A stretch of DNA of 64,000 nt from Nitrososphaerota archaeon (GTDB taxonomy: Archaea > Thermoproteota > Nitrososphaeria_A > Caldarchaeales > Caldarchaeaceae): contig JBEPYN010000002.1 in assembly GCA_041641305.1 (NCBI GenBank), positions 480,001-544,000 on the forward strand. The letters are read 5' to 3'. Position numbers and translations under genes: made by a program. The number at the start of each line of letters is the position of its first letter. Within the stretch, counting starts at the first letter, position 1. The notes under the pieces are model-generated. The model was not told the DNA's origin. It made no database searches and was given only the letters and a program-made list of their open reading frames with translations. This document shows, one piece after another, positions 2,201-43,268 of the stretch.

Positions 2201-3385
2201 ATGGCTGAGGACGGCGACAGGCTTCTAATCATAGTTGTTGACAGGGATGATGACCTTGGGGTGAAGACTGGGATAAGTGGCCCCGTTGTTGGGAGAGAAG
2301 CTAATCTGGATGCTGCTGTGCGGCTTGCCTTGGCTGACCCAGAGGACCCAGACGCCAACGCTCTCTTCTACGCCGTCAAGCTCTATGATCAGCTGACCCG
2401 GAGCAGAACAGGTGTGGCGATTGAGGTCGCCACGCTCACAGGTTCCCCGAAGGAGGGGCTCGAGGCTGACATGAACATTTTCAACCAGCTCCGCGAGGTG
2501 CTGGAAAAATTTCCCGCTCAGAGCTGCATATTCGTAAGCGACGGCGAGACAGATGCGATAGTTACACCCATAATCTCTTCACAGGTGGCGATATCCTCGG
2601 TTCAGCGGGTCACCGTCAAGCAGAGTCAGACGGTTGAGCAGTCGTGGCTCATTCTTGGTAAGTATCTGCGGCTTGGTATAACCGACCCGCGGTACGCCAA
2701 GTTCATCATAGGCATACCAGGCGGCTTCATCGCGCTCTCCGCGCTCCTAAGCATCTTCGGACTGGCCCAGCCCTCCATCCTACTTCTCTTCCTCGGCCTA
2801 CTTCTGTTCCTCTGGGGCTTCAGGATAGACATTCATCTCTCGCGTTTCTTCACAGGCTTCTACAGAATATCTCAGATGCCGGCAATCGGTCAGATAAGGG
2901 CATTCGCCTACCTTGGCGCGGGAGCGTCTCTGCTCATCGGGCTGTACCTCGGATTATCATCCTCCTACACAACCTACGTCTCCCTCAACCTGTCGACTGG
3001 ACAGATAAATGACCCGGCGATACTTCTGCCCACAATACTCCGGCTCTCAGGGGTTTTCATTAGCCAGAGCATCGACTTCATAGCGATCAGCGCGATACTC
3101 GTGGTTCTCTCCAACATGATATACTACTACATCATAAGATACTATGGGTTCTGGAGAACCATTCACGCAGGTGTTCTCTCGATATGGCTGTGGGCCCTAC
3201 TCAAACGGGCGGGAGTTCTTCTTCAGCAGCCGCAGCCAGCGACGATAACCGAGAGCTCAACATTCCTATTCATTCTCACGGCGGTGATGGGTGTGGTGAC
3301 GCTGGGAGTGACTTTTGCGATGACACGGGTGCTTCGCTCAATCTATGGAAAACAGTTCAGAAAAGGAACAGCCAAGAAACAGTGA
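2201..3385 (+). CDS. DUF373 family membrane protein
   Basis: N-terminal VDRDDDLGVKTGISGPVVGRE...DPEDPDAN, VSDGETD and VTVKQS motifs, followed by TM helices; conserved neighbour of uppS in archaea. Confidence 0.9.
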   Translation: MAEDGDRLLIIVVDRDDDLGVKTGISGPVVGREANLDAAVRLALADPEDPDANALFYAVKLYDQLTRSRTGVAIEVATLTGSPKEGLEADMNIFNQLREVLEKFPAQSCIFVSDGETDAIVTPIISSQVAISSVQRVTVKQSQTVEQSWLILGKYLRLGITDPRYAKFIIGIPGGFIALSALLSIFGLAQPSILLLFLGLLLFLWGFRIDIHLSRFFTGFYRISQMPAIGQIRAFAYLGAGASLLIGLYLGLSSSYTTYVSLNLSTGQINDPAILLPTILRLSGVFISQSIDFIAISAILVVLSNMIYYYIIRYYGFWRTIHAGVLSIWLWALLKRAGVLLQQPQPATITESSTFLFILTAVMGVVTLGVTFAMTRVLRSIYGKQFRKGTAKKQ

Positions 3386-34717: not shown

Positions 34718-35010
34718 CTCATACTTTAGCGTCTTAAAGCCAGAACATTTCTCAGAATAGTCATATTCTTCGTCAGGTTTATAAGAGATGCATAGGGTAT
34801 TGTCCTCAACCCATAGGTCGATAGGTATGGTTCTTGGTCAGTGGCAACAGTCTCGGCCTATAGCGCGAATACACCATAGTAATTGGGAAGGTGGTGTAAA
34901 TGAGGTTCTACTGCGATGTCCATAGGAAGAGGGATGACACAGGCTACAGGGTAACATACACAACGGATGGCGAAGACTTTAGACATGTTGATTCACCGGT
35001 GGAGATACCG
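34718..35010 (+). repeat. Diverged, internally deleted copy of the 38.0-38.45 kb module (remnants of the small Zn-protein gene and the IS110/Nop-like gene)
   Basis: Minus strand encodes IDLWVEDNTLCISYKPDEEYD (cf. 37904-38164). Plus strand from ATG 34900 encodes MRFYCDVHRKRDDTGYRVTYTTDGEDFRHVDSPVEIP (34/37 aa identical to the 38332 protein), then unrelated sequence to a stop at 35058. Confidence 0.92.
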
Positions 35011-35064
35011 GCAGGCCTGGCTGCGGAAAAACACGCTTATATAGGGTTTGGGTGTTGAGTATGT

Positions 35065-36501
35065 TTGATGTCGGCTGCCACGGCGCTGAACAAGTACCGC
35101 AACTTCAGCGACTGGTTTGACAAGCTTCTGCTCGAGGCCCGTATCGTTGATGATAGGTTTCCGGTTAAGGGTTTCTCTGTCTATTTGGAGAACGGCACAT
35201 ACATACTGAGGCGTGTGCAGGAGTTGTTGGAGAAGGAGCTGCTGGAGACGGGTCATAAGGAGATGATTTTCCCGCTTGTTACGACGGAGGAGCTTCTCGG
35301 CAAAGAGGCGCAGCACATCAAAGGCTTCAGCACGGAGGTGTTTGTGATAGAGTCGGCTGGCGGTAAACCGCTTGATGTTAAGCTGATTGTGCGTCCGACG
35401 AGCGAGACCATCATGTATCCCATGTTCAAGCTGTGGATAAGAAGCCACGCAGACCTACCTCTACTTGTCCATCAGAGCAACATGGTTTACAGACATGAGA
35501 CCAAGGCGACGAGGCCTCTGCTAAGAGTGCGGGAGATTCCTTGGAATGAGGCGCACACGGTTCATGCAACTGCGGCCGAGGCCGACCAACAGGTGCGTAA
35601 AGCGGTGGAAATCTATCGCAAGGTGTTGGACCAGCTTGGGCTCGCTTATCTCGTGCTCAAGAGACCTGATTTCGACAAGTTCCCCGGCGCAAGATACTCA
35701 ATAGCCTTTGACGCATGGAACCCCGACGGCAGAGTGAACCAAGTCGCGACAGTCCACAATCTTGGGAAGAATTTTTCGAAGGTGTTTGAGATAGAGTTTG
35801 AGACACGTGAAGGCAAGCGTGAGAACCCCCATCAGCTGTGCTACGGTTTTGGCTATAGCAGGGTTTTGGCTGCGTTGATAAGTCAGCACAGCGACGACAG
35901 GGGTCTCGTGCTTCCGCCTGTTGTCGCTCCTCTCCACGTGGTAATCGTTCCAATTGTATTCAAGGGTCAGGAAGAGGCCATTAAACAATTCTGCTACAGT
36001 GTCGCGGAGAGGCTGCAAAAGTTTTCTGTGAAGGTTGATGATAGGGAGGATGTGACGCCGGGTGAAAAGTTCTACTACTGGGAGAAAATGGGTGTCCCGG
36101 TGAGGCTGGAGATAGGGCCGCGTGAGGTGGCGGAGAACCGGGCTACGTTGTTTAGACGGGATACGTTGGAGAAACAGGCTGTCGCCGTCGAGGAGATTGA
36201 GAAGGCTGTGGAAAATGTGTTGAAAAGCATGGAGCAGAGTCTCGCGGAGAGGAGCTGGCGTATCATGCGTCAGATGATTGTCGACGCTTCAAATGTTGAT
36301 GAGGTGAAAAAAATTATTTCGGAGAGAAGGATCGCGAGGTTTGGCTGGTGCGGCTCAGTGGAGTGTGTTGAGCAACTTAAAGAGGCTGCGGGCGGGGAGC
36401 TTAGAGGAAGCAGGTTTGACGAGCTTGAGGTGCCCAACGGCCCCTGCATAATCTGCGGAAAAAATGCGGCAGAAGTGGTTTACTTCGCTAGGGCGTATTG
36501 A
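35065..36501 (+). CDS. proS: Proline--tRNA ligase (archaeal/eukaryotic type)
   Basis: RPTSET, YRHETKATRPLLRVREI, HNLGKNFS, GVPVRLEIGPR and C-terminal FARAY. Confidence 0.97.
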   Translation: MMSAATALNKYRNFSDWFDKLLLEARIVDDRFPVKGFSVYLENGTYILRRVQELLEKELLETGHKEMIFPLVTTEELLGKEAQHIKGFSTEVFVIESAGGKPLDVKLIVRPTSETIMYPMFKLWIRSHADLPLLVHQSNMVYRHETKATRPLLRVREIPWNEAHTVHATAAEADQQVRKAVEIYRKVLDQLGLAYLVLKRPDFDKFPGARYSIAFDAWNPDGRVNQVATVHNLGKNFSKVFEIEFETREGKRENPHQLCYGFGYSRVLAALISQHSDDRGLVLPPVVAPLHVVIVPIVFKGQEEAIKQFCYSVAERLQKFSVKVDDREDVTPGEKFYYWEKMGVPVRLEIGPREVAENRATLFRRDTLEKQAVAVEEIEKAVENVLKSMEQSLAERSWRIMRQMIVDASNVDEVKKIISERRIARFGWCGSVECVEQLKEAAGGELRGSRFDELEVPNGPCIICGKNAAEVVYFARAY

Positions 36502-37456
36502 GGACGTAGTTGTCGAGTGCTCTTAGCCGTTTGGCTGGGTCGGGGTGTGTGCTGAAGAGCTCTGCCACTGTGCTGGGTTTACGGCTCTTCACCTCTTCGA
36601 CGACCCTGTCGATGTCGCCGAATGCCTGAAGCTTGACGTCGGGGTCGGCTATGAAGAAGGCCTTAAACTGCTCAACATGCGCCACCTCTTCTTTTCTCAA
36701 TCTACCAGCCAGCATCATTATTCTTACAAGGGCCCGCTGGAGGTTTCGGGCACCATTCGGCACGGTTTTTGCCGAGAAGTAGTCGGCATAGTATTCGCGG
36801 AGCCTGCTCATGTAGAAGACGAATATGTTGAAGATGAAGCTGAAAGCCATCAACGCGATTCCGATGAGAAATGCGTAGGCTCCCCCTTCTCGGCGGCCTC
36901 CGAAGGCTCCTGAGACCAGCAATGTGTAGCCGAGATAGTATATGATGGCTGGTATGATGCTTATCGCCATCATGAAGGCAACGTCGCGGTGCTTGATGTG
37001 GCCCAGCTCATGTCCTATGACGGCTTCCACCTCTTCCCGCGGAAGGCTTTCGACAAGCCGTCTGGTGACAGCGACCATGGGGCCTGTGAGGGGACTGCCG
37101 TATGCGAATGCGTTGGGGATGTCTATTTCCGCGACATAGGTTTTCGGCGGCTTCTCCATCCCCGCGGCCAGGCTCAGCCGGTTGACAGTTTCCTCAACCC
37201 AGCCGAGTCCAGCCTCAGCCGCTGGACGGGTTCTATAAACCGCTCCGATTATGTATGGGCCGATAAGCCACTGGAAGACGTGGAAGACGACGACAAACCC
37301 TATGATGGTGTAGAAGTTCAGCAGCGGTATGCGGAGAAAAGTGAGCACAGCCACGAAGAGAAGCGAGGCCACCGCCGTTATCAACGCCCATGTACCAATC
37401 ATGGCTAGACGGAGCTTGACCAGCGAAAGCCTTGCCCTCTCCTGCGCAGTAGCCAT
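36488..37456 (-). CDS. htpX: Membrane zinc metalloprotease HtpX (M48)
   Basis: PNAFAYG, HELGH, SRLREYYAD and FSTHP. Confidence 0.95.
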   Translation of the reverse strand: MATAQERARLSLVKLRLAMIGTWALITAVASLLFVAVLTFLRIPLLNFYTIIGFVVVFHVFQWLIGPYIIGAVYRTRPAAEAGLGWVEETVNRLSLAAGMEKPPKTYVAEIDIPNAFAYGSPLTGPMVAVTRRLVESLPREEVEAVIGHELGHIKHRDVAFMMAISIIPAIIYYLGYTLLVSGAFGGRREGGAYAFLIGIALMAFSFIFNIFVFYMSRLREYYADYFSAKTVPNGARNLQRALVRIMMLAGRLRKEEVAHVEQFKAFFIADPDVKLQAFGDIDRVVEEVKSRKPSTVAELFSTHPDPAKRLRALDNYVLNTP

Positions 37457-37512
37457 ATTAGCTCACCTGAGTCGGCGTATGGTTCGGGTTCTAATAAACC
37501 ATATCCAACATC

Positions 37513-37797
37513 TTAGAGGAATTGCTCGGGCTTTCTCTCATCTCTGGCCCTAACCTTGAGGACGCCGTAGTGGATGGCGCAGCTGATGCAGAGGTTTTTT
37601 ACTACGATGTTTTCGGCGAGATAGGCACCCGCCTGCTTCAGCTCACGGGCCAAGTCACCGCGGACAAGAGAAACACGCCGCGTTACACGCTGGACCTTGC
37701 TTCTCGGCACATAGGCTCCGCAGTTGTCGCACTGAACAGTCGGCTCCTTCCCCTTAGCGCCTTTCGACCTGCCACGGCTCTTACGCTTGAACGGCAT
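37513..37797 (-). CDS. rps26e: 30S ribosomal protein S26e
   Basis: MPFKRKSRGR, VQCDNCGAYVPRSK and CISCAIHYGVLKVR. Confidence 0.96.
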   Translation of the reverse strand: MPFKRKSRGRSKGAKGKEPTVQCDNCGAYVPRSKVQRVTRRVSLVRGDLARELKQAGAYLAENIVVKNLCISCAIHYGVLKVRARDERKPEQFL

Positions 37798-37903
37798 TCC
37801 ACTCAATCACTACTATGTCTGTTATATAAAGATCGTCGAAGGTTAAACCAATTTTCTCCAAAACCTTCGCCAATAAATCCCTTGGAAAACAATTCGAGGA
37901 CAG

Positions 37904-38164
37904 CTATTTAGGTAGGTTGTTTTTCTTTTTTCTTGGTTTTGTTCTTATTTTTATTGCGTGGAATGGGCATTTTTGAAATTGTTCAAGAATGTGTCCTTTC
38001 TGGCATTTTGAGCAGAAGCCTATACCCTCCTCATAATTCGGGGTTTTAAAGGTAGGAATATTCTCATAGTGGTCATATTCCTCGTCAGGTTTATAAGACA
38101 TGCATAGGATATTGTCCTCAACCCATAGGTCTATAAATAATCGATTTTCCCTCATCCACGCCAT
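37904..38164 (-). CDS. Small Zn-finger-like protein
   Basis: CSKC...CPFH...IRTKPR motif with basic tail; a homologous remnant at 34718-34823 supports coding status. Confidence 0.6.
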   Translation of the reverse strand: MAWMRENRLFIDLWVEDNILCMSYKPDEEYDHYENIPTFKTPNYEEGIGFCSKCQKGHILEQFQKCPFHAIKIRTKPRKKKNNLPK

Positions 38165-38331
38165 TATTCAAGTCGTTATTAGACAGGTATGCATGGTGGC
38201 TTGGTATCCTAAGCCTAAGCCCAGCCGTAGTATAATACCTATTTTTTTGGTAATGGCTTTAAACCAGTTTTTAGGTTATGGGGGACATGGCCACTACCTA
38301 TGGCACGAATACACCAAAGAAAGTGGTGTAG

Positions 38332-39180
38332 ATGAGGTTCTACGCTGATGTTCATCGGAAGAGGGATGACACAGGCTATCGGATAACCTATACAACTGAT
38401 GGTGAAGACTTTAGACATGTTGATTCTCCGTCGGAGATACCGGTAGAAGCTGGAGACAAAGTATACGTAGACACAATACCGATAATACATACAGATGGTT
38501 TCATAGAGCTTCTTAGAAGAGGTGCTGAGGTTTACTATCTGAGGAGACTAACCATGATTGAGGCTGTGAGGCAGAAGATGGGGATAAAATCCAAGTCCGC
38601 GAGGACAGATATCAAGGCTTTGATGGCTGTTGATGATAAGTGGTTCCGTAGAGTGGATGAGAATTTCTTGGTGATGCGACAGATGATTTCGGCGTTTAGA
38701 AGTTTGGAGAGAACTATGCAGAGGCTGGAGAACCAGCTCAAGGCGGCTTCATCTGCTACCGAGGAGAGCTTGAGGAGAATGGTAAAACAAGTAGAGATAG
38801 AGAAAGAGGTCTTAGCCAAACGGATTTCAGAGGAGGCGGCGAAGAGGTTCCCAGTCTTCGTAAAGGTTGTGGAAGAGCTAGGGATAATGGGAGAGAACCA
38901 TGTATTGGCTTGTGAAGCTTTGGCGGAGCTGCTAACCTACGTCGACTTCAGCAAATCCTTTAGACAAGTGCGAGGATACCTACGGCTCTACAGGAAACGT
39001 TCAAAAAACCAGACGTATAACCACGAGACACGCCATGCGCTAACAAGGCTCACAATGGCAACAACAAGAAATACACCAAACGCCCATAAACAAGAAGACA
39101 TACTGATGAAGATATGGCTGACAATCAGACAGGAAACCCAAGAGAGGCTGGCAGGCATACCGGCCCAACAACAGGGATAA
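38332..39180 (+). CDS. IS110-related RuvC(DEDD)-coiled coil-Nop/Tnp20-fold protein (TasR-like architecture)
   Basis: YADVHRK (cf. GIDVHK), VYVD, KSARTDIKAL (cf. KTDxxDA), a coiled coil, then LAELLTYVDF...VRGYLRL...YNHETR (cf. IS110 Tnp20/Nop domain). Confidence 0.7.
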   Translation: MRFYADVHRKRDDTGYRITYTTDGEDFRHVDSPSEIPVEAGDKVYVDTIPIIHTDGFIELLRRGAEVYYLRRLTMIEAVRQKMGIKSKSARTDIKALMAVDDKWFRRVDENFLVMRQMISAFRSLERTMQRLENQLKAASSATEESLRRMVKQVEIEKEVLAKRISEEAAKRFPVFVKVVEELGIMGENHVLACEALAELLTYVDFSKSFRQVRGYLRLYRKRSKNQTYNHETRHALTRLTMATTRNTPNAHKQEDILMKIWLTIRQETQERLAGIPAQQQG

Positions 39181-39307
39181 AACCCAGAAGCCGGTATGTC
39201 CTGTTATATAGCGAGCTGACTCTTTCGCCAGCTATGTCTAGTTTATAAACGGCCGGCTTCTTTCATGGGTTTCCTAGGTGTTGTTGCTGGTTGGTTGCCT
39301 GCCAGCC
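39146..39307 (+). ncRNA. Candidate structured RNA (long rod-like hairpin) overlapping the 3' end of the IS110/Nop-like gene
   Basis: Nested helices 39146-57/39296-307 (12 bp), 39166-73/39279-86, 39180-86/39266-72, 39187-95/39252-60 and 39214-18/39229-33, with several G-U pairs on the + strand. Confidence 0.6.
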
Positions 39308-39317
39308 AACCACCCCC

Positions 39318-39332
39318 TTATTTTTTCCCTTA
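39318..39332 (+). terminator. Oligo-T tract after the hairpin
   Basis: TTATTTTTTCCCTTA just after the hairpin base; oligo-U termination is standard in archaea. Confidence 0.45.
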
Positions 39333-39520
39333 ATTTATGTCCATATAAACTAACAGGGAAAACCACAACTAGGTATCTATTTCTTTCATTTTCCTCTTAC
39401 GAATGCTCAAATAAGCAATTCATGGTTTAAAGCTATGTAATAAACCAACTAGACATATCATAGGTTGATAAGTTAATATACAGGGTTGGCTAAAGTGGGC
39501 GTCGGGCAGCCGAGTAACAA

Positions 39521-41440
39521 ATGGTGGCCGGTCTGAAAAAACTTTCATGCTACAACAAACCCCTGAACTTTCCCGAGAATAATTTTGACCACGAATGGTG
39601 GAAAAAAATTTTCAACGAGTACTACCTTGTTACAGATGGGGACGTTGTCTGCAACCAAGAATTGACCAAATACGAGGTCGACCTCATAGTCAAGCTTCTC
39701 GACCTCGATAAAACCGATGCGGTGCTAGACCTTTGCTGCGGCAACGGCAGACACGCAATAGAGCTCGCTAGAAGAGGTTACAGGGATATACATGGGCTCG
39801 ACTACTCCAGGTTTCTGTTAAACGTTGCCAGAAATTCAGCTAGACAAGAGGGGCTGAAAATAGACTTCAGATGGGGGGATGCAAGGAGCTTGCCCTTCGC
39901 GGATAATTCATTCGATGCAGTTATTTTAATGGGAAACAGCTTCGGATACTTCGCTGAAATAGATGATGACCTGAGAGTCCTAAGAGAAGTGAGACGTGTC
40001 CTAAGACCTTATGGCAGAATCCTCATCGACGTTGTAGATAGAGAACAGTTCTTAAAACATTTGGAGCCAATCAGCAGTGAAAAAAATGGAGATGTTCAAA
40101 TAATTAGACTGCGGAGGGTCATCGGTCGAAACAGATTGGTGACGCGTGAAATTGTTATCAGGGAAAACACGGAGGTATTAACCGACCATGTCTATGGCGT
40201 TAGACTATACAGCTTCTCAGAACTCAAATGCATGCTGGAGCAGGCAGAGTTCGCAAATGTGACTCTCAAAGCCAGTATCTCATACAATCCTGAAGGAAAG
40301 GACCCTGGAATGCTCAAAACTAGGATGGTCGTTACAGCATTATCTTCGAAGGAGAACATCGTTACAGCCCACAAGCCGCTCATAGCGGTGCTCATCGGTG
40401 ATCCAAGTAGACGCAATCCTGTTAAGCCTGGTGCAGTATTAGATGAAGATGATGTCTATGCGGTTAACGAGTTAAAATCAGCTCTCATAGGTATAAGAAA
40501 GTATCAATTCTGTTTCCTCGATAACCACGACTCATTTCTAGAATACTTGAAGGCAAACAAGAACTCAATTCATATCGTCCTCAACTTATGTGATGACGGA
40601 TTTCACAACGACCCGCATATGGAGGGGCATGTTCCAGCTTTGTTAGAGATGCTAGGGCTGCGGTATACTGGTGCTGGGCCAAGATGCCTATTCCTATGCT
40701 ATGACAAAGCAGCCGTCAATGCGATCGCAGAATCAATGAGCATCCCTGTACCAGAGTATGTGCTAATTAACAACCAGGATGAACTGAACATAATACCTAG
40801 ACGAATTTATCCCGCTATAGTGAAGCCTAACTTCGCAGATAACAGCTGGGGAATAACTGCGAAAAGTATTGTTCGGGACAGAACCGAGTTGGAATCTGCA
40901 ATTCATCAATTGAAGATTGAATGGGGCTACCATGGCCCAGTATTGGTGCAACACTATGTTGAAGGAAAAGATCTGACAACCGCTTTAATAGGAAATCCGC
41001 CAGATTTCATTGTGCTACCGATTCTGACAGAAGATTATTCTTGTTTACCTGACGGGCTTCCGAGAATTCTGACCTATGATGCAAAGTGGGTTCCAGACTC
41101 TCCATATGGTTGTGTACAGTCGGTACCGGCTACACTTAATTCCGATATAAGACACAGGCTAGTCAACTGGAGCAAAGAGCTGTTCATAAGGCTGGAGTGC
41201 AGAGATTATGCGAGATTTGATTGGAGATTGGGATATGATGGTACTCCATGGCTGTTAGAGGCTAACCCAAATCCTGGATGGGTCTGGGATGGTCATCTCA
41301 GAAAGGCATGCAATTATATGGGATGGAGTTACAAGAAGATGTTTCAAGCCATCATTGAGGCGACTGAGAAACGTTATAGAACGGCCAACTCCAAACAACA
41401 CATTAGTATTCATCCTCAAAAGATTGAAGCCATACACTGA
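39521..41440 (+). CDS. SAM methyltransferase fused to a D-Ala-D-Ala-ligase-like ATP-grasp domain
   Basis: N-terminal LDLCCGNGRH...NSFGYF; C-terminal YTGAG...YDKA, IVKPNFADNSWGI, RDYARFDWR and LEANPNP. Confidence 0.88.
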   Translation: MVAGLKKLSCYNKPLNFPENNFDHEWWKKIFNEYYLVTDGDVVCNQELTKYEVDLIVKLLDLDKTDAVLDLCCGNGRHAIELARRGYRDIHGLDYSRFLLNVARNSARQEGLKIDFRWGDARSLPFADNSFDAVILMGNSFGYFAEIDDDLRVLREVRRVLRPYGRILIDVVDREQFLKHLEPISSEKNGDVQIIRLRRVIGRNRLVTREIVIRENTEVLTDHVYGVRLYSFSELKCMLEQAEFANVTLKASISYNPEGKDPGMLKTRMVVTALSSKENIVTAHKPLIAVLIGDPSRRNPVKPGAVLDEDDVYAVNELKSALIGIRKYQFCFLDNHDSFLEYLKANKNSIHIVLNLCDDGFHNDPHMEGHVPALLEMLGLRYTGAGPRCLFLCYDKAAVNAIAESMSIPVPEYVLINNQDELNIIPRRIYPAIVKPNFADNSWGITAKSIVRDRTELESAIHQLKIEWGYHGPVLVQHYVEGKDLTTALIGNPPDFIVLPILTEDYSCLPDGLPRILTYDAKWVPDSPYGCVQSVPATLNSDIRHRLVNWSKELFIRLECRDYARFDWRLGYDGTPWLLEANPNPGWVWDGHLRKACNYMGWSYKKMFQAIIEATEKRYRTANSKQHISIHPQKIEAIH

Positions 41441-41497
41441 GAAAATTGGGTGTTGGAACTAGCTTGTTTATGTTAATTTAAATACAGTGGCTGCAGC

Positions 41498-42439
41498 ATG
41501 AATAATGTGAGCAAGAAGGTCTTGGTGGCAGACTCTATTGACAAAGCGGCTGTTGATGTTCTCGAAGATGCGGGTTTCCAGGTTGATTTACGTCCAGGGA
41601 TTTCCGCGGAGGAGCTTGAATCCGTGATAGGTGGCTATGATGTGTTGCTTGTCCGTGGGAGGACAAAGGTAACTGCGAAGGTTATTGAACGCGGTGTTCC
41701 CGTGTTGAAGGTTGTTGGCCGTGCTGGAGTTGGACTCGACAACGTTGACCTCGAGGCTGCGGCGCGGCATGGCGTCAAGGTGCTGAACACACCAGAGTCA
41801 ACGACCGAAAGCGTTGCGGAGCTCGTCGTCGGGTTGATGATAGCCGTGGCCCGTAAAATCGCTTGGTGTGATAGACAGGTTCGCTCAGGTAAGTGGCCGA
41901 AGTCCGAGGCCATGGGCGTAGAACTGGCTGGGAAAACCCTCGGTGTTGTGGGCTATGGACGGATCGGGAGACGTGTCGCCGAGATAGCATATGCCATGGG
42001 GATGAAGGTTGTTGCCTACGACGTCATACCCATTCCGGAGGAGATTTTGGCAAAAGCCGGGGCCAGGCTCACAAGCCTCGAGGAAGTGCTGCAGACAGCA
42101 GATGTCATAACCCTGCATGTACCTCTTACACCCGAGACAAGACACCTAATCGATGCAAGCAAACTGGAGATGATGAAGCCGACCGCCATACTCATAAACG
42201 CGTCACGTGGAGAGGTGATAGACGAGGAAGCACTCTACAACGCTCTCAAAGACGGTAGAATAGCGGGCGCGGGTCTCGATGTTTTCGAGAAAGAGCCACC
42301 CACCGGGAGCAAGCTTCTCACGCTCGACAATGTTGTGCTCACTCCGCACATAGGTGCTCAGACTCGGGAGGCTCAGGAGGCTGCTGCAACGATGCTGGCG
42401 AAAAAAGTTATCGAAGTGTTTGCTTCAATGAGTTCTTGA
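41498..42439 (+). CDS. serA: D-3-phosphoglycerate dehydrogenase / D-2-hydroxyacid dehydrogenase
   Basis: GRAGVGLDNVD, GYGRIG, INASRG, DVFEKEP and TPHIGAQT; no ACT domain. Confidence 0.85.
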   Translation: MNNVSKKVLVADSIDKAAVDVLEDAGFQVDLRPGISAEELESVIGGYDVLLVRGRTKVTAKVIERGVPVLKVVGRAGVGLDNVDLEAAARHGVKVLNTPESTTESVAELVVGLMIAVARKIAWCDRQVRSGKWPKSEAMGVELAGKTLGVVGYGRIGRRVAEIAYAMGMKVVAYDVIPIPEEILAKAGARLTSLEEVLQTADVITLHVPLTPETRHLIDASKLEMMKPTAILINASRGEVIDEEALYNALKDGRIAGAGLDVFEKEPPTGSKLLTLDNVVLTPHIGAQTREAQEAAATMLAKKVIEVFASMSS

Positions 42440-43268
42440 CAAGCTTGAGCAGCTTCTCCGGATAAAGGCCGGACAAATCCTCCCTGTAAAAAACCACAAT
42501 CTTTTCATCATATCTCCTGTCCAGCTCCACCCCGGGGCCCAGCTCAACCCACACTCCTTCCTCGACAAATTTTCGGAATTTCTCCACCGCGTCCCCGCTC
42601 CTGAGAATATCTATGGGACAGTTTATGTACATGGGCCTCTTGTCGACGATGTGGCGGGTGGATTTGGGTGGCAGCCTGTAGGCATGTTTGGCGATTGAGA
42701 CGACCTCCTCTTTCCTCAGAGGCCTCAGCAAGTATCCGAAGACGTGTCTGCCCCGTTTAACAACCTCTTCAACGTCACTGTCTCTGACATAGGTTATGCC
42801 AAGCGTTTTTAGTCTCTGCTCGAGCATGGAAAGTTTCCCGTAAACCTGCTCGGTGGCCAGAGTTTCTTGATGTTTGATTTTCAGGCTCTGTCCATTGCTC
42901 CAGATGAACCAAGCGTCGTAGATGTCTCTTGACTCTGTGAAGCCCAGTTCGCTGCAATAATCCTTTAACTCATCGCTGGATATGTTCTTTGACGCAGCTC
43001 GCCCCCATCCGGCGAGGACAACACGGGGAGACATGTAGTCGACTGTGTAGACGGGTATTTTTTCGAGGCCTAGAACCATAGCCGCCTCAACCCTGTGCGT
43101 GCCATCTATAACCAGCCCGGTCTCAGCGTCGACTATCACGGGGTCTATGAAGCGGCCTTTTTTGGCGATGTCCTCGGCTATGCGGGAGACTGCTTGTGGA
43201 ATGGATTGCTCATGTGGGTGAAGGTTTCCGGTGTCGGCGAGTGTGACCGTCCAAGGTTTTAGCCTCAA
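42408..43268 (-). CDS. ParB-like fold protein, SerK/SbnI-type free serine kinase-like
   Basis: LHPHE, IDGTHR and PPKSTRH motifs. Confidence 0.65.
   Translation of the reverse strand: MRLKPWTVTLADTGNLHPHEQSIPQAVSRIAEDIAKKGRFIDPVIVDAETGLVIDGTHRVEAAMVLGLEKIPVYTVDYMSPRVVLAGWGRAASKNISSDELKDYCSELGFTESRDIYDAWFIWSNGQSLKIKHQETLATEQVYGKLSMLEQRLKTLGITYVRDSDVEEVVKRGRHVFGYLLRPLRKEEVVSIAKHAYRLPPKSTRHIVDKRPMYINCPIDILRSGDAVEKFRKFVEEGVWVELGPGVELDRRYDEKIVVFYREDLSGLYPEKLLKLVKNSLKQTLR

Follow-up and report, generated by a model that had tools for sequence, protein, structure and literature searches.

The window, by which we mean the whole 64-kb stretch of archaeal chromosome analysed here, contains a locus in which the gene of a 282-aa protein, P0001, is followed on the same strand by a rod-like hairpin RNA and a T-run (Table 1). 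A smaller open reading frame of 86 aa lies on the opposite strand in the left part of the locus, and weak relatives of it were found upstream of only three other copies. There is also a decayed fragment of a second P0001 gene copy 3.3 kb upstream (34900-35016), which is 87% identical to residues 1-39 of the protein.

Table 1. Features of the P0001 locus and of the matches discussed in the text, in window coordinates.
Feature	Position	Strand	Remarks
Left half-site of the split target (candidate), CTGTTATAT	37819..37827	+	identical to guide A
Putative inserted element body, ~1.5 kb	37828..39343	+	placed by analogy with empty sites
86-aa ORF, in the element's left part	37904..38164	-	weak relatives at three other copies
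282-aa protein P0001	38332..39180	+	predicted IS110-recombinase/TasR fold: RuvC-like, coiled coil, Nop-like
Rod-like hairpin RNA, 162 nt	39146..39307	+	overlaps the stop codon of the 282-aa ORF
5' box, TATGTC	39195..39200	+	conserved, partly stem-paired, outside the guide
Guide A, CTGTTATAT	39201..39209	+	covariance-model window
Inner hairpin	39212..39232	+	separates the two loop strands; compensatory changes between copies
3' box, TATGTC	39233..39238	+	covaries with the 5' box between subfamilies
Guide B, TAGTTTATA	39239..39247	+	covariance-model window
T-run 3' of the hairpin RNA	39320-39328	+	
TATGTCC	39336..39342	+	within the right end of the element; true right half-site 1 nt away
Right half-site of the split target (candidate), TATAAACTA	39344..39352	+	reverse complement of guide B
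11-mer, AACTAGACATA	39447..39457	+	reverse complement of the 3' box and the first five guide B positions; 95 nt beyond the element

P0001 gave no family match in Pfam or NCBIfam, with PF01548 and PF02371 absent at E <= 10, and a sequence-profile search against the Protein Data Bank had coiled-coil noise as its best hit (E 0.055). Ten distant relatives were likewise free of Pfam domains, save for one sub-threshold hit to PF01548 (IS110 DEDD; 16 bits against a cut-off of 29). Surveys that rely on the IS110 domain architecture of Pfam for their selection would therefore overlook the protein. Its family comprises 232 'hypothetical' relatives in Caldarchaeum, Calditenuaceae and other Nitrososphaerota, and falls into only 198 clusters at 50% identity in a search of 1.84 billion cluster representatives.

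The AlphaFold2 model of P0001 (pLDDT 90.6, pTM 0.85) was matched by Foldseek to the ISCro4 and IS621 recombinases and then to TasR, with E-values of about 1e-7 to 1e-6 and TM scores of 0.60-0.64. In VIA-align comparisons the best structural match is the TasR protein of TIGR-Tas (PDB 9mty, chain A; Z 15.6 over model residues 1-274), followed by IS621 (8wt6) and ISCro4 (9t56), both aligned over the full length (Z 14.1, 255 residues, rmsd 4.4). TasH (Z ~13) covers residues 109-272, and Nop5/Nop56/58 (Z ~7) residues ~109-274, which make up the coiled-coil and Nop-like part. On this model P0001 is predicted to have the IS110-recombinase/TasR fold, sharing a RuvC-like domain, a coiled coil and a C-terminal fold with the IS110/IS1111 enzymes. 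Residues D6, D42, D47, E66, D93 and E110 are invariant in the family. No invariant or near-invariant serine was found in the C-terminal residues 175-282; at the serine-equivalent position, which was set by motif and not by superposition, position 224 is G in 20 of 33 sequences and S in four, and position 230 is S in 16 of the 33. Y229 (window ~39016-39018), kept in 32 of 33 sequences, lies in what we take, judging by motif, to be the loop where IS110 enzymes carry their catalytic serine. With only 282 aa, no PF01548/PF02371 match and no conserved serine, P0001 departs from IS110 enzymes in spite of the common fold.

The hairpin (39146-39307) has an RNA minimum free energy of -83.8 kcal/mol (z = -4.67) and reads, in order, outer stem, box, 9-nt guide A, tail, inner hairpin, box, 9-nt guide B, tail and outer stem. 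The same architecture, including the T-run, was found 3' of nearly every full-length copy of the gene, and it is the 9 nt that vary. An alignment of 17 copies yielded a consensus fold with compensatory changes in 7 of 22 pairs, and the covariance model built from it, which also defined the guide windows for the tests on each locus, gave one same-strand match adjoining the ORF in 56 loci. Its remaining matches were weak opposite-strand hits to the same hairpin and two marginal ones elsewhere. Box and tail switch jointly on both strands by subfamily (GTC/AAC, GAC/GAC, GCT/TAATC and GCC/TAC), as would be expected if a symmetric dimer binds the RNA. The fold and the 17-copy consensus show one large internal loop and no second, donor-binding loop. 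From its sequence and predicted fold, the hairpin is best described as a single-unit, pseudo-symmetric dual-guide RNA.

A structured RNA encoded beside the gene is common to IS110/IS1111 elements and to the element described here, and its position 3' of the gene corresponds to the IS1111-like arrangement. The bridge RNA of IS110 has a target and a donor loop, whereas the present RNA has one guide loop. Its succession of box-guide-box, hairpin, box-guide-box is also that of the archaeal box C/D sRNP (Nop5-fibrillarin-L7Ae), but the boxes are TATGTC and AAC and the guides match DNA flanks. The canonical C/D consensus is RUGAUGA and CUGA, and an Rfam scan of the whole window found no family at gathering score and no C/D match. 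Both IS110 and TIGR-Tas have been linked structurally to box C/D snoRNPs in the literature. In its layout the RNA also conforms to the stem-loop tigRNA unit, in which two 8-12-nt spacers lie between box motifs that covary in both halves, the whole being closed by a stem (Faure et al. 2025, PMC12045711). Like that unit, the present RNA has two 9-nt guides, covarying box/tail halves and a closing stem, and would read both strands of adjacent DNA.

The relation between guides and adjacent DNA was examined by counting exact 9-mer matches of each guide in the flanks of its own locus, with the guides of other loci as control. Of the 56 homologous loci, which include related ones and are not fully independent, 12 have the reverse complement of guide A on the right side of the RNA gene and 15 that of guide B (27 loci; non-self 2.2%). 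To the left, upstream of the ORF, identical 9-mers were found for guide A in 7/56 and for guide B in 6/56 (non-self 2.2-2.7%). The two wrong orientations stayed at background (1/56 and 0/56 for guide A, 2/56 and 1/56 for guide B, against a non-self value of ~2%). Both arrangements occur, guide A on the left with guide B on the right, and guide B on the left with guide A on the right. An exact right match is thus present in about half of the loci and an exact left match in about a quarter; decay may account for the loci without one, or the DNA that was fetched may not extend to their flanks. When right-side matches were seeded with guide positions 2-8, position 1 was identical in 30 and position 9 in 24 of 39 cases, while the box (position 0 and below) and the tail (position 10 and above) showed an overall identity of ~25%. 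This drop outside positions 1-9 indicates that pairing is limited to the nine guide bases. The 9-mer guide match of the window copy therefore belongs to a strong general rule across loci.

A comparison of the whole 220-nt RNA with the flanks for shared 9-mers was dropped, as it gave ~1.5 chance matches per locus, and this noise is why the covariance-model guide windows were used instead. Matches at long range, such as that of guide B of locus L003 at -116 kb, were indistinguishable from chance, with ~12 expected per 9-mer genome-wide.

In the window copy, the 9 nt identical to guide A lie at the left of the locus, where the identity reaches 10 nt (37819-37828), and those complementary to guide B lie at its right, with 1515 bp between the two half-sites. 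Being identical to the top strand of the left flank, guide A would pair there with the bottom strand at 37819-37827; in the right flank, guide B is the complement of the top strand at 39344-39352. Joined at the overlap, the two half-sites spell what we infer to be the address of this copy, CTGTTATATAAACTA (CTGTTA-TAT-AAACTA), which falls in the class of 3-nt overlaps described below. The boundaries of the element are approximate in this copy, within the 2-3 nt core. An imperfect direct repeat occurs at both junctions, TATGTC-TGTT-ATATAAA at 37814-37830 and TATGTC-C-ATATAAA at 39336-39350. It exceeds the 2-nt duplication of the five empty-site loci and may be read either as an AT-rich coincidence or as a longer duplication.

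The orthologous region of the sister genome aligns to the window at 35800-37806 and again at 41506-42910. Segment 37807-41505 is missing from it, and so the sister genome lacks both the element and an adjoining gene. The promoter DNA at the junction is too diverged in the sister genome for an exact empty site to be read, and the junction is not base-precise. The part of the missing segment to the right of the element (39353-41505) holds a 639-aa ORF (39521-41440); its absence from the sister genome points either to a second insertion beside the element or to a deletion in the sister genome.

Precise empty sites came from the reverse comparison, in which the window's own genome was found to lack insertions carried by the sister genome (G011), with flanks that align across the gap. 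At four of these loci the empty allele has a contiguous 16-bp site in which the two 9-mers overlap by 2 nt, for example CATCCTTAAATAATCT against the guide-derived CATACTTAA and AAATAATCT. A fifth empty locus, L034, has an intact 15-bp site, AAACTCTTATAGAAG (AAACTC-TTA-TAGAAG), which matches both guides perfectly with an overlap of 3 nt. At the occupied loci the central 2 nt occur at both junctions. A comparison independent of the flanks agrees with these overlaps: the last two bases of guides A and B are mutually complementary in 19 of 49 loci, compared to 19% with shuffled partners, and five further loci, the window copy included, fit a 3-nt overlap. The empty alleles point to an uninterrupted target of 15-16 bp, read by guides that would overlap by 2-3 nt, with the element sitting exactly at the overlap.

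These observations bear on the view that we are dealing with a non-mobile, TIGR-Tas-like unit for regulation or defence, with guides that by coincidence target the neighbouring promoter, i.e. the TATA region of rps26e. The tigRNA-like architecture of the RNA (PMC12045711) would suit such a unit, but the site matched by its guides is one that the element itself interrupts, and this site is intact where the element is missing, at five loci compared between the window genome and the sister genome. In addition, there is one RNA unit per locus and no array, and the family is multi-copy with pseudogenes, so that we regard a non-mobile unit as very unlikely. Instead, a single-unit dual-guide RNA very probably spells out an uninterrupted site of 15-16 bp, at the centre of which a multi-copy selfish element would have come to sit.

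The initial annotation of this DNA had proposed that the internal loop of the hairpin holds two guides, one identical to the left and one complementary to the right half of a DNA site, and this idea is borne out by the covariation across loci. The strings that it quoted are all present at its coordinates: TATGTCC at 39195-39201 and at 39336-39342, TAGTTTATA at 39239-39247 with TATAAACTA at 39344-39352, and TATGTCTAGTT at 39233-39243 with its reverse complement at 39447-39457. Over all 64 kb of the window the guide B 9-mer and the 11-mer are each found only at their two places, and TATGTC occurs 38 times with both strands counted. As for the single bipartite site proposed at 39336-39352, its right half (39344-39352) is a true half-site, but its left half, TATGTCC at 39336-39342, is not, the true left half-site being that at 37819-37827. 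As to the suggested role as donor/target or self-target sites, the half-sites would be the flanks of a split target and not a donor site, and no donor-type match was found.

How often matches of these lengths arise was assessed with 5000 dinucleotide-preserving shuffles of the 300 nt 3' of the hairpin, taking their longest match to the 53-nt loop. Matches of at least 7 nt occurred in most shuffles, while P was 0.059 for at least 9 nt and 0.0026 for at least 11 nt; at the window locus a 7-mer is thus uninformative, a 9-mer suggestive and an 11-mer unusual. Covariation over the 56 loci separated the matches differently, as the 9-mer guides covary whereas the TATGTCC type and the 11-mer type do not. 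TATGTCC consists of the conserved box and the first guide base, and the box is outside the pairing register. A 7-mer common to the element ends and the RNA of the same locus was found in 4 of 19 loci, compared to 22.7% with the RNAs of other loci, and the TATGTCC match recurs across loci at chance frequency. The 11-mer type (box plus five guide positions) is exact in one of the 56 loci, L001, and present with one mismatch in 3/56, against 1.7% expected. The match at 39447-39457, which had been offered as a second site, does not covary in homologous loci and is for that reason unsupported. It is out of register and locus-specific, and lacks support as a functional site. We also considered that 39353-39540 could be a decayed copy of the RNA, but its local alignment score of 22 is no higher than the 95th percentile of shuffles, with nothing aligned except the 11-mer.

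A two-site bridge RNA that uses 39336-39352 and 39447-39457 as donor or self-target sites, with TATGTCC as its left guide, is most unlikely in the light of these results. The rarity of the 11-mer in shuffles (P = 0.0026) and the position of TATGTCC, 1 nt from the true right half-site, speak in its favour, yet TATGTC is a conserved box beyond the pairing register, 7-mers at the element ends are at chance (4/19 against 22.7%), the box+5 match is exact in 1/56 loci, and the hairpin has no second loop. It is hardly credible that all the matches are chance in AT-rich DNA. Even though 7-mers are common in shuffles and the 9-mer taken alone has P = 0.059, the enrichment over the 56 loci is specific to orientation and position, and uninterrupted sites of 15-16 bp matching both guides exist in another genome.

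The distribution of the family is that expected of a mobile element. In the window's genome, four full copies and one fragment are highly significant and a sixth match is weak, and order-wide we found matches in 27 of 75 genomes, with up to 33 per genome, many of them with internal stops or at contig ends. Multiple copies, pseudogenes and locations at contig ends together form a signature of mobility. No terminal motif is shared between copies, meaning that conserved element ends were not found. Searches for donor recognition gave no excess complementarity of the element ends to the whole RNA (4/19 against 22.7%). Setting the inside ends of the element against the opposite guide brought no convincing signal either (out of 7 positions, 2.42 identities against 2.00, and 3.11 against 1.98). 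From the terminator to the right junction there are between 62 and 834 nt of DNA, which has no relationship from one copy to the next.

One left-truncated copy, L040, nevertheless adjoins its guide-matching 9-mer. We rejected the possibility that it is a circularly permuted element, the missing left module not being in its right part. Two 79-nt segments of that right part (locus 2521-2719) show 85-86% identity to C1:737307-737385 and C2:247657-247735, two unrelated loci of the window's genome, and no tRNA was detected in L040. Other variable DNA was found at L003, where positions 2516-3007 (genome G000, contig C2, ~462,980-463,470) hold a module of ~480 nt that duplicates, with 87% identity, the 5' part of an open reading frame of 465 aa located elsewhere in the genome (C1:746905-748299). 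The same module precedes the right junction of L037 in another genome. In L003 it lies between two reverse-complement matches of guide A, the proximal one with one mismatch and the distal one exact, and may represent captured cargo bracketed by half-sites. At the right junction of L041 (2125-2146), a reverse complement of guide B with one mismatch lies 4 nt before an exact reverse complement of guide A.

Guides and the rest of the element appear to have separate histories. Copies L037 and L038 (G011 contig C1, ~130,650 and 690,380) are 96% identical over 1.6 kb, while ~10 of 12 variable guide positions differ between them. Conversely, at an orthologous insertion shared by two species (L002/L008) 17 of 18 guide positions are kept and the ORFs are ~70% identical. 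These comparisons suggest that selection would keep the guides of each copy matched to its own site, with recombination homogenising the remainder. What has been replaced between L037 and L038 is a cassette of ~47 nt comprising guide A, the inner hairpin and guide B. Variants of the inner hairpin are shared among copies in a pattern that is discordant with ORF similarity.

In comparison with known systems, the element is apparently a cousin of the bridge-RNA and TIGR-Tas systems that has not been described before; literature searches on TIGR-Tas, IS110, archaea and mobile elements turned up no account of a mobile, single-unit, flank-addressed member. With IS110 it has in common one guide identical to the left arm and another complementary to the right arm, and an overlap of the two at a short core, which is present at each of the junctions, but it differs in having neither conserved ends nor donor complementarity. 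From TIGR-Tas arrays it differs by its single RNA unit per locus, by spacers that match the element's own flanks and not other DNA, by its multi-copy insertion with empty-site alleles, and by two heteroduplexes that would overlap by 2-3 nt. The hosts are different as well, since TIGR-Tas arrays are reported predominantly from phages, archaeal viruses and CPR bacteria, and the present element resides in an archaeal chromosome.

Several steps of a possible insertion mechanism can be proposed. A dimer of the 282-aa protein with IS110/TasR fold would bind the RNA and read the intact site on both strands, and the element would then enter through cutting or strand exchange at the central dinucleotide. 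The lack of a conserved serine, a donor loop, conserved ends and RNA-to-end complementarity argues against the standard IS110 reaction. What we consider to have nearly an even chance is an IS110-like chemistry that would use another nucleophile and would not have its donor specified by the RNA. We slightly favour it over homing, the alternative discussed below, because the 2-nt duplication is constant and the sites in a genome are many. With some more reserve, we tentatively suggest that the element as a whole could be a minimal programmable element standing between TIGR-Tas and IS110 in evolution, equipped with a target-only tigRNA-like unit and a small RuvC-Nop protein, devoid of the IS110 serine and of an RNA-specified donor, and with guides that would be kept by selection.

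The TnpB/IscB omega-RNA nucleases of IS200/IS605, and homing endonucleases, have as their target the element-free version of their own site, and such targeting would let TnpB/IscB-type elements re-copy themselves into empty alleles. The present element differs from TnpB/IscB by its unrelated fold and by its internal, bipartite guide, which does not arise by read-through from the flank. An RNA-guided homing of this kind, in which a TasR-like RuvC nuclease would cut empty 15-16 bp sites and repair would copy the occupied allele, is a somewhat less probable alternative. Occupied sites would then be immune, because their address is split, and whatever lies between the half-sites would get copied during break repair. 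Several of the above observations are in accord with homing: the nuclease TasR is the best structural match of P0001 (Z 15.6), D6, E66, D93 and E110 are invariant while no serine is conserved, the only guides in the RNA are those for the target, ends and cargo vary, and guides have been kept at the old orthologous insertion L002/L008 despite the divergence of the ORF. However, homing alone cannot increase the number of copies within a genome, where up to 33 matches at different sites are found, and the constant duplication of the central 2 nt resembles the IS110 core. Moreover, by our own reckoning, a stagger of ~6 nt would result if cleavage followed the TasR/TasH rule (5th base after box C; PMC12045711).

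Bridge recombinases and TIGR-Tas nucleases are both current genome-editing platforms, and the evolutionary link between them has so far been inferred from structure only. A natural element that carries one tigRNA-like unit and is inserted precisely in the middle of its address would make the link between IS110 and TIGR-Tas concrete. P0001 is small (282 aa), comes from a thermophile, has no conserved serine and would not need a donor loop. Should homing prove to be its mode of propagation, the element would be, to our knowledge, the first mobile, self-propagating member of the TIGR-Tas kind. If P0001 itself catalyses the insertion, it would do so by a chemistry or a mode of donor capture that is new to the superfamily.
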